From Styela clava (lineage: Eukaryota), in NCBI RefSeq assembly GCF_964204865.1, contig NC_135251.1, positions 9,858,001-9,922,000 of the forward strand: a stretch of 64,000 bases of DNA, written 5' to 3'. Made by a program: the position numbers. Numbering within the stretch: position 1 is the stretch's first letter; every line of letters begins with the position of its first letter. Shown piece after piece: positions 1 to 60,000 of the stretch.

Positions 1-3000
1 TTATTGAAAGTTTTTATATTTCTATAAGTCAGCGCAGCTAGGTAACTTAAGTTAAGTAGGTCATAAACTTAACATTTAACAACACTTAAGTTGACCATTT
101 TGATGACGTCACACCTTGAATATTACTGGGTAAAAGCTTCATAATGCAACGAAAGTAATTATGACAAGTCGAAAACAAGTCGGCAGTATGAGTCGTTACA
201 ATGAAATTACCTATTAATTTTACGTTCTAGTCTGGTTTACAATTAACCATACCCAACCGTGCATGGTTGATTAAATGTCCAATTTTTCAAAACATAACAG
301 TATCTAGGATGGTATGGATCATTAAAAAATATACAATACATATTCAGTATCAGACATTGGCACTGTAGGTACTGATATATTCAAACGACTTAAAATTGCC
401 CTTTTAAAATTGTATGACCTATCAAAGACTCTTTTTAACACTCACCAAGTTTAGTTGAGTTAATTTAAAGGTCATGACTAATAAAACGCCACTGTGTATA
501 TCGAAGTTTTGATCGGCAATCTTTAATAGTTATGACTGCTTTAAACAGACAAGATAAGTGTCATGTCACATAATATTTTCAGAATACTGTCCCAACAATG
601 ACAATCCGTGTCAAAATGATGGAAGCTGTGAGAATACTCCAGGGACCGATCCTTACTTTCAATGTAATTGCAAGCCTGGATATTTTAACGTCACCTGTTC
701 TAGCGATGGTGAGTAACACAACTTGTAGTTTTAAAATTATTTTTGTATTTGATTGAATATTACTTTACACACTAAAGTACGACTTACAGAAAACTAAATT
801 CGCATTTTCGCAACTCTTGGCGTTCATACATTTTCTGTTTGTTTGAATATATACGTAAATTTTTGTGAAAACTGAGTTGAAGTTGACAATTTAATTTTGT
901 ATTTCAGAATACTGTTCAAACAATCCAAATCCTTGTCAAAACAGTGGGAGCTGTGAAAATACACCAAAACATGATCCATATTTTAGATGCAACTGCGAGT
1001 CGGGATTTTACGACAATATATGTTCTAGCGATCGTAAGTATTGTAAAACGGAAGTGAATAAAATAAATATAACCTATAATTAATAATCATTATAGATATG
1101 ATTGCATGCCGGCCTTTCATGACAATAACGGGTTATAGCAATCGTTAGTGACAAACTGCATTTTGAAATCAAATAAAATTATATTCTTTTATAACATACA
1201 GTAAGTACATAATAGACAATTTGTTACACGCAATGATTTTAGATGTAATTCTCTGTGCCTACATTCGATTCCCTTCTTATCATATGCCGTGTTTGCCTTA
1301 ATCGGTATAGTAATTAAATACTACAAAAATATAACAGAGGGTATACTCTACATGCCACCATAATTATGTATTATACATTTTAAGAGACATTGAATGCAAC
1401 CCAAGTCAAAGGAACGTATAATATTGTATAATGAAATATTTTTCCTATTCCCGTGGAAAGCGTCACATGCAAAATATTGTCCAAACTGCACATATTATAG
1501 AAAAACACAAGCAAGTGTCTTTCTGTTGCATTATTAATATTTAGAATAATACAGTGATTTTGAACCTGAGCACGATCAAAACGTTTTTGGAGGTTTGGGG
1601 GTGTTCAAGGGTGTCGACGAAGATCCACATTATCAAGTCTTTCAGTTACCCAGCATATTGTTTTTTGCTATGAAAACTTTGATTCGATTTTGATCACATT
1701 TTATTGAAACATGACAACCAGGAATAGCCCTGATCGGATGACTATGTGCAGTCAATATTTCTCTCGTCCTAATTCATTTTGTTGTAACCAGTTGATCACT
1801 AAGGGGTTTGGCGGTTAATATAATTTGGGAACTCTTAAGATATAACTCCAAAAACTCACCACCGTTTTTTAATTATAATGAGTAAAGACGCATTTGCATT
1901 GTTAATAAGTTCTAGTTGCGCCACTAGTTTTTTGTAATCAAAACGTTGGGGTTAGAAGGAAGCCTGCAGAATAACTTAGGGGTTCGGCAGGTTCGTAAAG
2001 ATTAAAACCACTGGACTAATTTTCTGCTTGTTTTTTTTTAAATTCATCATTTAGTTTATAAGATTTATATTCTGATTCTACAATTCTCTATAGTGCTTCC
2101 GCGATAGGTGGGTAAGGTGAACTGAAGTATAAATTATTTATTTTATTACCAAATGTGATTGGATGTCGGTCTGCTACGGCAATACCGATTTCTGTCAAAC
2201 GTTGGTAACAGACTACATTTTGAATTGAAATTGATACACCCGAATAACTCAGAATACAAACATAACTGCAATGCATAAAAATGAATCTTAGTGAAACTAT
2301 GTTGTTATGCCTATTTTTTTTATTATTAAAATCTACTCAAAGTGGATATTTTCGTTAGCCTACCTCATAAAATTCCTTCACTGCAAAAAGTTATTATTTA
2401 CAAATTTACATCTTGTTAGTTATATGAGATGAATATCTTAGCGGTTGAGAATGTGTGAAGTTATAAAATCGGAATGATTGCACGAATAAGGTTAATGTTA
2501 TGTCGCATAACAATTTCAGAATATTGCCCCAATAATGGGAATCCGTGTCAAAATGGAGGAAGCTGTGTAAATATGCCAGAAAAAGATCCATATTATAAAT
2601 GTACTTGCATACCTGGATATTTCAACTATACCTGTTCTAGCGATGGTGAGCAACAAAATGCGTTTATATGAATTAATTTTAGTTTAATAAAGATTGCTTT
2701 GAAAACTGAGACAAAGGTATTAGCATTTAAACTCCTAGCGTTAATTATTTCCAGTCTGTCTGGATGATATATCGTTAAACTCATTTACACTCAATGTAGG
2801 ACCACAACATATTGTTCTGCTATAAATAGTGACAGGTCTTTCTTATCCATTATTATATAAATTAAAAGAATATTTCTTCATCTACAGCCAACAATTCCAA
2901 AATTAAAACTTTATTTTTATCTATATTACAATTTGCCAACGTCGAGAATATTTAATCTATATCTTTCACGATGAGAGAATACAAATCATTCCGGTTTGTT

Positions 3001-57000: not shown

Positions 57001-60000
57001 GTCATTCTATGCGATTCTCCAATGAATTAGTGCGGTCATATCGTTGTGGAATTGTTGGGTTCTGAAATCTAAAGCATTTCAAGAAAATTCTGTTTGCGTG
57101 TTATACCCACGTACTCCACTCGTTTAATCAAGTTTAAGATTTGCTTATAATCCTTATCTCGACGTATGGCATTTCAAATTAGCCTATGTATCAGTATCTA
57201 CATAGGTCAATAGAAAATTTATTTTTGTTGTTGTTGTATAGATGGATGGAAGAATCGATACCCGTGCGATAAATGTAATTTGAAGTCGTGGAAGGCTTGT
57301 TTATTAATCTCATATTTATCATTTCAGTGACGGATTGGGGCGTACTGGTGTTTTCTGTACCATTTTGAATGTTATAGACAGATTGAAGTATGAAGGCCGT
57401 ATCGACATCTTCCGCACTGTTAAAGATTTGAGAGATAATCGGCCTGGGATGGTAAAAACACTGGTATGTCTTTATATAATATTGTACAAGTATGTTTGAT
57501 TATTACTTAGTTTTACGACAAAGTAAACAACAAGCTATGAACCATGAAAATAAATATTCTTTTGTCCTGATATGAAATTTATCAGCATGAAATAATCCGA
57601 ATTTAGTTCTTTTAAAAAAGACTCAGGAAAGAGTTGGACGAATTGTATTAGTCTAGTTCACGGGTGGGTAATGTTTTTGGAGCAGGGGCCAAAAATTTTG
57701 TCGACCTAAACTGGCGGGCCATGCAAGTGTGACGTAAATGATTTATTTTATATGTGCCACAAATATTGTATTATTTTAAAACAGCAACGCTTTTTTTTGC
57801 ATACAAGACACACTTCGGTTAATCCAACTAAGTTAGCTAGCGTTATGGGGGCGTTAACACAACTTTGTTGGCACTAAATTTAATCTTGAGGTTTGCGTGA
57901 CCACACAAGCGCACGAGCATCAGACTGCACCAATTGAATAACTCAGCGGACCGGATTTGCCCCGGTCGTTTAGCTGCTGTATATAATGATTGGAAATTTA
58001 TGTTAAACATTCCAGGAGCAATACAATTTCTGCTACAAAGCGGTTAAGACGTATTTGTCTTCAACTAACGTGTACTCCAATGATGCGCTCGAAGTGGAAG
58101 AAGAAGACCAAGATCCAATTTATGAAAACGTCTAATGTACGATTCATAACTCACGCCGTACGTGAAGCTTTTCTAATAATTTTTCTTTACGTTATGCTTT
58201 AAGAAAGTACATTGTTATCCTCATCGATATATTTACAAGAATTATTATTAGATAGGAATTTGCCGGAAAAGATGGACGTGTGATAGGTAATTCACGAAGT
58301 TTTTCAAATATTTTTCTTTGTGTTATATGAGGTTTCATTTATGTAATTCTGTGAGAAAAGACAATATAAAGTTCATATTATGTGCAATTTATAATTCATG
58401 CCGTGTATGACATTTATCAAATATTTTTAGCCATATTATATGTTTAATTTTTGTAATTTTGCAAAAAAATGCAATATAATCTTTGTCAAAAAAATTTTGG
58501 CTGTGACTATATTTTTGTTAATCAAATAGTTATTCATGTATTCGTTTTTTATATATTAAAAGAAGTAATATATAATTGAATGGTATACCGTTGCTAAATT
58601 CACGCTATTTGTATCATTATATTTTTCATAATAGTGTTCAATTTACGATTTGCGGACTGAAAATATGTGCACTTATACAAAAGCAAAAAAGTATTGCAAG
58701 ATTAGCTTTAACAATTCCAAAAATTTATTTTCCCAGCCAATCGAACTAGTAAAAATATTAAATTCTATTAAATATTGTATTTGCCAAAAATCAATTCTTA
58801 TCTAGGAGAAAGTTTTGAAAACAAAACAACATGTTTCTCCTGGAAATAATTTAAAGATAAGATTTATTTTAAAATTTCCGTTTCAATTGATATTTATCTT
58901 AAGTTGTCTCGCAGAATTACCTCAAAAGTTGGTCTTGCATAAGTGTTATGTGTAATTGTGTATATTTTCATGTTTCCACGCATTTTATCGTATCTTGGTC
59001 TGCCTAATTTGATTGTATAACAGTTGATTAATTCATTTCTTGCAATAAATACTCACAATTATAGCCAAGTTTGTAATATATCTGCCTAGGGAAATTTAAA
59101 ATTGGTTTTATAAGAAATTATAAGGGCGTAAGACCATTTTTGTGACATAAGCCTTTGAAGTATAATGACCAATCTATAGTGCCCAACAGTCTATACTAGC
59201 ATTTAAGCTAACACTAACTCAATAATGTAATATGAAATGAAAAAATAACTCACCTTTCACACTCTGGTTCATCACCGATATTCGCTGAAAAGCCCCAAAC
59301 GTTTATCATGAGATTGCGACATATAGATTTAAAACTATTGTTTAACGCCGCGGTACCCGAAAATCGGTACTCCCGTAGTGGGTGTACCAGGTTAGGGTTA
59401 GGCCATAATTTTATTCCGATTTTCCTTGTTTTAGTTCTATTATGAGTTTGGGGACTGCCTGTGTTGGCCAAGCGAATATACCCTCTGTCAATATGTTCAC
59501 ACGACCTGATGTAAAATAGGCGAACAAATTTTTTAGTTACCTTTACCTCCATACTGGTACACACACTTTTGCAGCCCCCGTAAATCTAATGTACACTTCA
59601 ATTTTATATTTCCTCTCGCTTAAGCCATGTTCAGCGATCGCTGTGTACAAAATAGTAGATCTTTATACGTGTGGTACTGCATTACAGCCATAGCATCACT
59701 ATATATATTTATATCAATAAGTCAGTTTTGTCTGGCTACGTTTTTTGTAGGGTACTCCCGTAATGTGTGTACCAGGTCAGCGTTAGGCCATAATTTTGTT
59801 CCGAATTTCTTTATTTTAGTTCTATTACGCGTTCGGGAACTTTTGTGTTAGCCAAGTAAATACCCCCCTATCCATATGTATCAGTTCCTTTACACAACTG
59901 TAAAGTAGTCAAACAAAATAACTTACCTCAATATTGGTACACACACTTCTGGAGCGCCCATTTTAGGCGAAAGCGCAGAATACCAAGTGAAAAGTTGGCA

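Follow-up and report, generated by a model that had tools for sequence, protein, structure and literature searches.

A candidate paired-receptor cluster in Styela clava: similar C-type lectin-like heads on a tyrosine phosphatase and on a short tyrosine-motif tail

Vertebrate paired receptors are immune gene families whose inhibitory arm recruits a phosphatase. Here we analyze a stretch of 64,000 nucleotides from the styelid ascidian Styela clava (NCBI RefSeq assembly GCF_964204865.1, contig NC_135251.1, positions 9,858,001 to 9,922,000 of the forward strand), referred to below as the window and used for all coordinates. Within these 64 kb lie three tandem plus-strand genes, all type I receptor paralogues. 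Gene 3 is predicted to join a head of three C-type lectin-like domains (CTLDs) to two tyrosine phosphatase domains, gene 2 to join a similar head to a short tail with tyrosine motifs, and gene 1 to end in the same kind of tail, trimmed by a stop codon; the 5' end and head of gene 1 are beyond the window edge, its first EGF exon beginning at 582. Our best explanation, to which we give a probability of about 0.5, is that the cluster resembles paired receptors in its architecture and places similar heads on either a phosphatase or a docking tail.

A full-text literature search found neither phosphatase receptors with CTLDs nor pairs of this kind described for ascidians, although subscription journals were outside its scope and an older description may exist. 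The same kind of search for "PTPRLec", a name from sea urchin, found no paper. A table row in PMC514892 places the Fugu phosphatase PTP-GMC1 among CTLD proteins. For the styelid Botryllus, passages of PMC12065747 and PMC12582321 describe receptors with an immunoreceptor tyrosine-based inhibitory motif (ITIM), a hemi-immunoreceptor tyrosine-based activation motif (hemITAM) or a Y-x-x-I/L/V core, with premature stops that delete tail motifs. The same passages report that CD45-like receptor phosphatases are expressed, as are homologues of Src, Syk, SHP-1 and Grb2.

Three receptor genes and two kinds of cytoplasmic end

The window contains 0 N and has a G+C content of 29-38%, and genes 2 and 3 are spaced ~4.8 kb, stop codon to start codon. 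Window genes were scanned exon by exon, and whole-protein evidence was taken from public proteins only. The public Styela clava model of gene 2, P0003 (LOC144419974, 779 amino acids), maps onto it with 0 mismatches at 15 of 16 solved junctions. The model covering gene 3, P0002 (1547 amino acids), is labelled "receptor-type tyrosine-protein phosphatase mu-like"; most phosphatase exons are 93-100% identical between the two, and ectodomain exons 63-97%. P0004 matches gene 1 at ~97% in the best exons. Both P0002 and P0004 are cluster representatives that differ from the window genes and may be paralogues or alleles of them. With non-identical guides, 3 of 13 junctions were solved; the remaining bounds come from mapping or splice context, and those of gene 3 downstream of the head are match bounds. 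One long gene across all three units was rejected, each unit having its own signal-peptide exon and stop codon. Rfam gave no match, and the ESM Atlas returned only generic fn3 cytokine-receptor clusters, all below 0.9, which were not used.

Gene 3 has the features of a classical receptor protein tyrosine phosphatase (PTP), namely type I topology, a first phosphatase domain (D1) with HC(X)5R, WPD loop and Q loop, and a second PTP domain (D2). Its parts are as follows.

33677-58135 (+): gene 3, with signal peptide, three CTLDs, six EGF exons, immunoglobulin (Ig) region, fn3 stalk, membrane span and two phosphatase domains
33677-33743 (+): signal-peptide exon (MRKITWTSIIVFVSILKTVRPQ), in phase with CTLD1
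34505-40206 (+): head of three CTLDs, gene 2 exon bounds mapped onto gene 3
34505-34655, 35607-35699, 36429-36541 (+): CTLD1 exons
36935-37100, 37195-37293, 38408-38517 (+): CTLD2 exons
39059-39215, 39471-39557, 40097-40206 (+): CTLD3 exons
40591-45130 (+): six EGF exons (40591-40697, 41061-41187, 41677-41799, 42306-42431, 43840-43980, 44975-45130)
45402-46458 (+): two exons missing from genes 1 and 2
45402-45698 (+): the first of these, a module of ~100 residues with no Pfam match
46144-46458 (+): the second, an Ig (I-set) domain, by Pfam I-set/Ig_3 on P0002 residues 453-521
46593-49171 (+): fn3/stalk exons, match bounds
49336-49437 (+): membrane-span exon, hydrophobic span
49702-50058 (+): juxtamembrane exons, including ..DAPLYENVES.., Y codon at 49936
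50405-53977 (+): phosphatase D1, WPD and HCSAGVGRTG intact, 4 exons matching Y_phosphatase
54293-57520 (+): phosphatase D2, HCSDGLGRTG, YPDW replacing WPD, 3 exons matching Y_phosphatase
58016-58135 (+): last exon, ending in NVYSNDALEVEEEDQDPIYENV, with TAA at 58133-58135

Scanned singly, 7 of the 10 phosphatase exons match Pfam Y_phosphatase. The D1 exons read ..KWPDHGVP.. and ..VHC / SAGVGRTG.., D2 reads ..VHC / SDGLGRTG.., and the C-terminus reads ..NVYSND..DPIYENV before the stop. P0002 as a whole matches Y_phosphatase at 7.4e-130 (two stretches), together with I-set, fn3 and EGF. The solved structures closest to its phosphatase part are PTP-sigma (2e-121), LAR (7.6e-117), RPTP-alpha (3.9e-102) and RPTP-epsilon (1.4e-97). 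The "mu-like" label of P0002 was set aside, PTP-mu D1 matching at 1.5e-51, far below PTP-sigma. Both gene 3 EGF exons that were scanned (2 of 2) match Pfam EGF, and the single Ig-region piece scanned did not match its family (0 of 1). After the juxtamembrane exon (50059-50070), read-through past the donor (..REQYQ) reaches a stop within three codons, and intron retention would therefore yield a short-tail form of gene 3 that ends soon after PLYENV.

Gene 2 carries the head on a different cytoplasmic end.

11544-28921 (+): gene 2, with gene 3-type signal peptide and CTLD head, shorter ectodomain and 88-residue tail
11544-11610 (+): signal-peptide exon (MRKIAWTIIVVFVSILKTVRPQ), donor G/GT, phase 1
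12483-19369 (+): head, three CTLDs of three exons, by P0003 mapping, with CTLD1 bounds by splice context
12483-12633, 13167-13262, 15685-15797 (+): CTLD1 exons
16216-16381, 16471-16569, 17673-17782 (+): CTLD2 exons
18304-18460, 18715-18801, 19260-19369 (+): CTLD3 exons
19757-25507 (+): four EGF exons (19757-~19864, ~20993-21119, 23291-23413, 25385-25507)
25579-28073 (+): fn3-type stalk, first four exons 25579-25678, 25941-26067, 26202-26384, 26642-26849; last four exons 27007-27106, 27359-27499, 27695-~27838, ~27968-28073
28196-28417 (+): exon with the membrane span and first tail part
28839-28921 (+): last exon, ending in QQHIYSTIPGVGYENVVLPNKDSDDA, with Y codon TAT at 28877-28879 and stop TGA at 28919-28921

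Gene 1 is visible from its EGF region onwards.

582-3494 (+): four EGF-like exons (582-707, 907-1044, 2519-2644, 3348-3494), P0002 tblastn match bounds
3716-7134 (+): fn3-type stalk, first four exons 3716-3817, 4712-4838, 4955-5137, 5397-5604; last four exons 5754-5853, 6073-6213, 6753-~6894, ~7029-7134
7258-7479 (+): exon with the membrane span and first tail part (AWIAGVVVGIVALATLVVGAIFYTKRR, followed by DLYETTGYQ)
7892-7932 (+): last coding exon, ending in QQHIYSTIPGVG and then TAG at 7930-7932

Throughout the stalk, membrane span and tail, genes 1 and 2 are full paralogues, and their splice dinucleotides and exon lengths agree wherever mapped; in gene 2 the donor after stalk exon e is intact. 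Their stalks are only 30-45% identical to the gene 3-type stalk, that of gene 2 resembling gene 1. The gene 2 tail has four tyrosines past the membrane boundary, in DLYETT, TGYQTA, HIYSTI and VGYENV, and gene 1 keeps the first three. The gene 1 TAG at 7930-7932 stands at the TAT codon of gene 2, and the preceding 36 bases are identical in the two genes. The old frame stays open past it to the same TGA, at 7970-7972, and the stop costs 14 residues and only the last of the four tail tyrosines. Thus the original prediction for this DNA, which named an intact phosphatase in gene 3, a short tail with VGYENV in gene 2 and a stop at that tyrosine in gene 1, is borne out for all three ends. P0023 is a third close paralogue of the tails at 7258-7932 and 28196-28921, and more copies are probably present upstream or elsewhere.

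The membrane spans, AWIAGVVVGI(I/V)ALATLVVGAIFY in genes 1 and 2 and WIAAVVICPILIIVIMGGMYY in the gene 3 type, contain no charged residue, and the classical activating arm of paired receptors is therefore missing.

The two cytoplasmic ends are not confined to the window. A profile-free family scan of P0001, a named S. clava short-tail protein, against 1.84 billion representatives retrieved 86 proteins at E <= 0.001, 34 of them at E <= 1e-10, with phosphatase and short-tail forms both present. Pfam scans of nine relatives found Lectin_C in 8 of 9 and, in 3 of 9, tandem Y_phosphatase as well. Pairs of relatives with similar ectodomains include P0006/P0007 (66% over ~730 residues), P0015/P0019 (53%) and P0002/P0001 (76%, in the stalk). 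That similar ectodomains recur on both a phosphatase and a short tail marks the arrangement as a trait of the family, one that is like paired receptors only in its architecture. Together these matches show a family of predicted type I receptors, with an ectodomain of CTLD, EGF, Ig and fn3-type stalk, in two cytoplasmic versions: a tandem tyrosine phosphatase of the LAR / RPTP-alpha kind, and a tail that lacks a phosphatase, ~25-330 residues long in relatives and ~75-90 residues in genes 1 and 2, in which Y-E-x-I/L/V and Y-x-N motifs abound.

The lectin-like heads and their duplication history

The two signal-peptide exons encode 22 residues each, of which 3 differ between genes 2 and 3, and in both the G/GT donor leaves one base, the GAT codon being completed by the first CTLD1 exon. 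Mapping the head exon bounds of gene 2 to gene 3 gave AG at 7 of 7 acceptors and GT at 8 of 8 donors, with 6 of 6 lengths kept. Over the CTLDs, 300 of 343 compared residues are identical (87.5%). The signal peptide and triple-CTLD head had been predicted to be near-identical in genes 2 and 3; they are indeed common to both, but with 43 of 343 residues different the likeness was overstated. CTLD2 is the best conserved part of the head, with 5 differences in 121 residues against 30 in 191 elsewhere (Fisher p 0.0015); CTLD3 has 16 in 117 and the last CTLD1 exon 9 in 38.

P0003 matches Pfam Lectin_C at 5.1e-20 (two stretches), along with EGF and fn3, and CTLD matches among solved structures include mannose-binding protein, SP-D, CD23, collectin-11 and DC-SIGN. 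The first CTLD1 exon also matches the Pfam-supported CTLD of P0006/P0007 (46% identity, E ~2e-6). The calcium-site-2 and sugar ligands of C-type lectins are EPN or QPD, E, and WND. In an alignment with mannose-binding protein A, CTLD3 replaces EPN by EGS, E by K and WND by WRD. Placed by eye against the same alignment, CTLD2 has EGH, E and WID; for CTLD1 the gene 2 residues are EPN, E and WVS and those of gene 3 are EPG, A and WVS, the EPN/EPG difference being in the last CTLD1 exon. None of the three CTLDs has the full set of five calcium/sugar ligands, and the domains are therefore called C-type lectin-like. From these residues, a protein or non-classical ligand seems as likely for the heads as a sugar, and sugar binding through the classical calcium site is improbable.

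Self-alignment of the window resolves a repeated tandem block of stalk, membrane span, tail, intergenic DNA, signal-peptide exon, CTLDs and first EGF exons. Its alignments are kilobases long, which excludes chance as the source of the likeness.

4698-11664 and 25926-33799: gene 1/gene 2 copy and gene 2/gene 3 copy, 77-81% identical
12417-13376 and 34438-35817: duplicated block, 74-81%
15413-20049 and 36238-40875: duplicated block, ~91%
up to 21130 and up to 41198: duplicated block, 85-88%
15413-21130 and 36238-41198: high-identity tract of ~5 kb, last CTLD1 exon to first EGF exons, 93% overall

Identity in the tract peaks at ~96% around CTLD2 and is 84-90% at both ends, with only 74-81% in the block flanks. 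This ~four-fold shift of divergence in one duplicated block points to later gene conversion or to a second, overlaid duplication, of ~5 kb of the head between genes 2 and 3. P0002 is itself a mosaic, its first EGF being 97% identical to gene 2 and 89% to gene 3. From stalk to tail, genes 1 and 2 differ at 73 residues, with a ratio of nonsynonymous to synonymous divergence (dN/dS) of 0.31 over 417 codons. Their dS of 0.28 equals the divergence of non-exon DNA (0.276), and exons are 88.2% identical against 76.9% for non-exon DNA. Judged by these rates, genes 1 and 2 are both under purifying selection, which argues against pseudogenes.

The region also bears marks of rearrangement. An inverted EGF-exon copy is found in a gene 2 intron at 24140-24226 (minus strand), where 2435-2609 matches 24307-24133 inverted, and was probably left behind when rearrangements reshaped the EGF region. 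The gene 2 intron between CTLD1 exons 2 and 3 (13376-15413) contains ~2 kb that are missing in gene 3 (35817-36238). This insertion has a raised G+C of 0.38, two copies of a 178-bp unit (14862-15209, 94% identical) and a serine/arginine-rich open stretch of 164 codons on the minus strand (13991-14482) with no Pfam match; the start of P0003 maps into it, at 15198-15272. Between the first two EGF exons (19864-20992), P0003 has a 34-residue non-EGF exon at ~20560-20660, in ~770 bases missing from gene 3, which is either an exonised insertion or a prediction error.

Several observations weigh against reading the cluster as paired receptors. The first concern the heads. Divergence is greatest in the loop-encoding last exon of CTLD1: it is 86% identical between genes 2 and 3 against 94% for the flanking introns (16 of 114 mismatches against 34 of 588, Fisher p 0.004), and the two heads may bind different ligands. 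Over the head tract dN/dS is 0.60 (312 codons, 35 differences), and exon blocks are no better kept than non-exon DNA (93.4% and 93.2% identical). This equal likeness points to recent gene conversion or re-duplication rather than to selection on the protein, and by these measures there is no sign of selection holding the heads of genes 2 and 3 alike. Below the head the ectodomains differ, gene 2 having four EGF exons against six and no Ig region (~200 residues). The CTLD assignment rests on P0003 and relatives because none of seven CTLD exon pieces scanned singly with Pfam reached Lectin_C at E <= 1. Other points concern the tails. In the three closest tails the terminal codon is Y in gene 2, a stop in gene 1 and N in P0023 (GVGNENV), with the 12 preceding codons unchanged between genes 1 and 2; the terminal tyrosine thus varies and so may not matter. 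Alignment of the tails sets the juxtamembrane YENV of the phosphatase forms opposite DLYET, the first short-tail motif. Finally, neither gene 1 nor gene 2 has a complete public model, and the membrane span is missing from both models: P0003 has no signal peptide, begins in the intron insertion and ends by reading into the intron before the membrane span, and P0004 is also a fragment. Full receptor models were therefore built in this analysis.

Several of these observations would also follow if the arrangement were a by-product of duplication, with unequal exchange among EGF repeats and neutral conversion among tandem paralogues in an expanding family, and with short-tail genes acting independently, in adhesion, as ligand sinks or in signalling of their own. 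We regard this as possible, if on the unlikely side. The matching exon and non-exon identities and the dN/dS of 0.60 are as under neutral homogenisation, and the CTLD1 loop-encoding exon is the part in which the heads differ most. The ectodomain differences below the head are equally in its favor, as are the rearrangement scars, both the inverted copy at 24140-24226 and the gene 2-specific insertions. It is harder to reconcile with the phosphatase/short-tail pairs that recur in more distant relatives (66%, 53% and 76%), which a one-off accident would not readily produce, and with the purifying selection on the short-tail genes.

Tail tyrosines and what the tails may recruit

YENV occurs 3 times in the plus-strand frames of the window, always in predicted cytoplasmic exons, and 0 times on the minus strand. 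Shuffles gave a mean of 0.3, and 2 of 200 reached 3. For comparison we used 14 of 87 proteins, short-tail forms that have a membrane span, lack HC-x5-R and match the stalk strongly. Of the 78 tail tyrosines that could be scored in this set, 41 are followed by E at +1, 14 by N at +2 and 32 by I/L/V at +3; E at +1 and I/L/V at +3 are enriched.

The ITIM consensus is (I/V/L/S)-x-Y-x-x-(I/V/L). VGYENV of gene 2, 13 residues from the C-terminus, fits it, and it was as an ITIM that the motif had originally been labelled: gene 2 would recruit a SHP-type phosphatase, gene 3 would have its phosphatase built in and gene 1 would be left without an ITIM. The full pattern is found at 6 of the 78 tail tyrosines, including C-terminal SQYETV and SIYEDV, and Botryllus, also a styelid, has receptors with ITIM or hemITAM and homologues of SHP-1, Syk and Grb2 according to passages of PMC12065747 and PMC12582321. 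The label does not hold up well against the rest of the evidence. The -2 position, which defines the ITIM, has I/L/V/S in 22 of 78 cases against a tail background of 26%, which is no enrichment. P stands at -2 in both gene 3 copies, PLYENV next to the membrane and PIYENV at the C-terminus, and also in PRYENV of P0001. A single chance match among five tail tyrosines is expected in about one case in four, by rough estimate rather than computation. The tyrosine is N in P0023, and the membrane span offers no charged residue to an activating adaptor. From these motif counts the ITIM reading of the gene 2 tail is weak, and the three-way scheme built on it is quite unlikely.

Judging by the motifs that recur, a docking role suits the short tail better than that of an ITIM. 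Y-x-N adjoins the membrane in 8 of the 11 phosphatase relatives and stands close to the C-terminus in 9 of them. In gene 3, the last exon has its best match in the C-terminus of RPTP-alpha, where VYSN lies opposite DYAN, although the match is weak (E 0.087). We take the DYAN tyrosine to be the Grb2-binding Tyr789 of RPTP-alpha, and YENV fits the Grb2-type pY-x-N preference of SH2 domains. The terminal YENV of gene 2 was considered as a positional homologue of the juxtamembrane YENV and rejected, the alignment pairing DLYET instead; only the motif class is in common. Among short-tail relatives, P0016 and P0038 have YETI, six residues, and then YEDI/YEEI. This spacing fits the consensus of the immunoreceptor tyrosine-based activation motif (ITAM); some family members may be activating.

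On the reading that we favor, related ligands would be met by similar heads that have either a phosphatase or a phosphorylatable docking tail behind them. Src-type kinases would act on the tail tyrosines, where SH2 proteins would dock, and the tail may recruit SH2 proteins of the Grb2 or Src-family kind rather than SHP-type phosphatases through an ITIM. Gene 3 has motifs of this class too, beside the membrane and at the C-terminus, and the TAG of gene 1 would take away one docking site.

Finally, we consider it very improbable that genes 1 and 2 are in decay, as pseudogenes or transcribed fragments descended from a phosphatase receptor gene without its catalytic exons: the premature stop of gene 1, the fragmentary public models without membrane span and the ~2 kb and ~770 bases inserted in the head introns of gene 2 would suit such decay, but dN/dS is 0.31 with exons 11 points better conserved than non-exon DNA, the compared gene 2 exon blocks contain no stop and all mapped splice sites are kept, tblastn downstream of both tails found no phosphatase-exon relic (best E 0.11), more distant short-tail relatives have stop codons and tyrosine motifs of their own, and the gene 1 stop costs only 14 residues.

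A more specific proposal, speculative and rather unlikely as it stands, is a styelid paired-receptor system in which conversion moves the CTLD head between phosphatase genes and genes with a Y-E-x-V docking tail, and in which the terminal Y, stop or N tunes the output, in self/non-self or microbial recognition. If true, the balance of kinase and phosphatase would be set from the same ligand, independently of ITIM/ITAM adaptors. The host is a non-vertebrate chordate, with a phosphatase built into one receptor and a neighbor that has the same kind of head on a tyrosine-motif tail. If a shared ligand engages both versions within the same cells, evolution would have arrived more than once, with different wiring, at opposing outputs of a single recognition domain, and the locus would be a tractable one for how gene conversion keeps recognition domains matched. 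Should they act separately, the cluster would still be an example of exon-block duplication and head homogenisation in a lineage-expanded family of phosphatase receptors.

Other features of the window include retroelement and repeat sequence. At 61592-62104 (plus strand), downstream of gene 3 and beyond all three genes, an open stretch of 171 codons, the one virus-like feature found, matches Pfam zf-RVT at 7e-14, the C-terminal zinc-binding part of a retroelement reverse-transcriptase protein of the non-LTR (long terminal repeat) type. Scans of 19 other open stretches, taken from the DNA downstream of gene 3 and from the intron insertions, gave no reverse-transcriptase or endonuclease domain. 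With zf-RVT alone and the rest missing, the element looks like the remnant of a single gene, truncated once from the 5' side. Dispersed repeats of ~200 bp, 70-80% identical, are found downstream of gene 3 at 59364-59579, 59751-59959 and 63369-63536, and again in a gene 3 intron at 42453-42686 and 42822-43037, adjoining an 8-bp microsatellite at 42497-42546.

Comparison with known receptor systems

The Fester co-receptors (FcoR) of Botryllus schlosseri are, like the cluster, styelid type I receptors in multigene clusters. In the passages of PMC12065747 and PMC12582321 that describe them, their tails have an ITIM, a hemITAM or a Y-x-x-I/L/V core, and alleles or splice forms lose motifs by premature stops. 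Their ectodomains, unlike those of the cluster, are of Ig and sushi type, and they are not known to have a phosphatase partner of the same family; no sequence relation to the cluster was seen, although no search was aimed at one.

Gene 3 is closest to LAR/PTP-sigma (type IIa) and RPTP-alpha/epsilon (type IV), which are likewise type I with two phosphatase domains. As in the LAR and RPTP-alpha kinds, its D1 has WPD and HCSAGxGRTG and its D2 keeps the cysteine, and its C-terminal Y-x-N aligns with the DYAN of RPTP-alpha. The ectodomain is different, with three CTLDs, EGF repeats, one Ig domain and an fn3-type stalk in place of the Ig/fn3 array of LAR or the short ectodomain of RPTP-alpha.

Selectins share with the cluster an N-terminal CTLD followed by EGF modules, type I topology and a short tail. 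The cluster differs in having three CTLDs, incomplete classical ligands and an fn3-type stalk replacing the complement-type repeats. TrkB.T1 similarly sets the same or a similar ectodomain on an enzyme or on a short tail; there this is achieved by alternative splicing of one gene, whereas here separate genes have their own signal-peptide exons and stop codons.

The comparison with vertebrate paired receptors (Ly49, KIR, SIRP, Siglec-5/14), on which the original prediction was built, holds in part. The clustered paralogues, the similar head and the different cytoplasmic ends are as in those families. In addition, genes 2 and 3 have heads made alike in their DNA, as in Siglec-5/14, and a premature stop trims a tail motif in gene 1, as in short-tailed KIRs. 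In contrast, the cluster lacks a charged residue in the membrane span, and hence gives no sign of an ITAM adaptor arm, its ectodomains differ below the head, and the ITIM consensus is no feature of the family. In place of an inhibitory tail that recruits a phosphatase, one output of this cluster would be a phosphatase covalently attached to the receptor.

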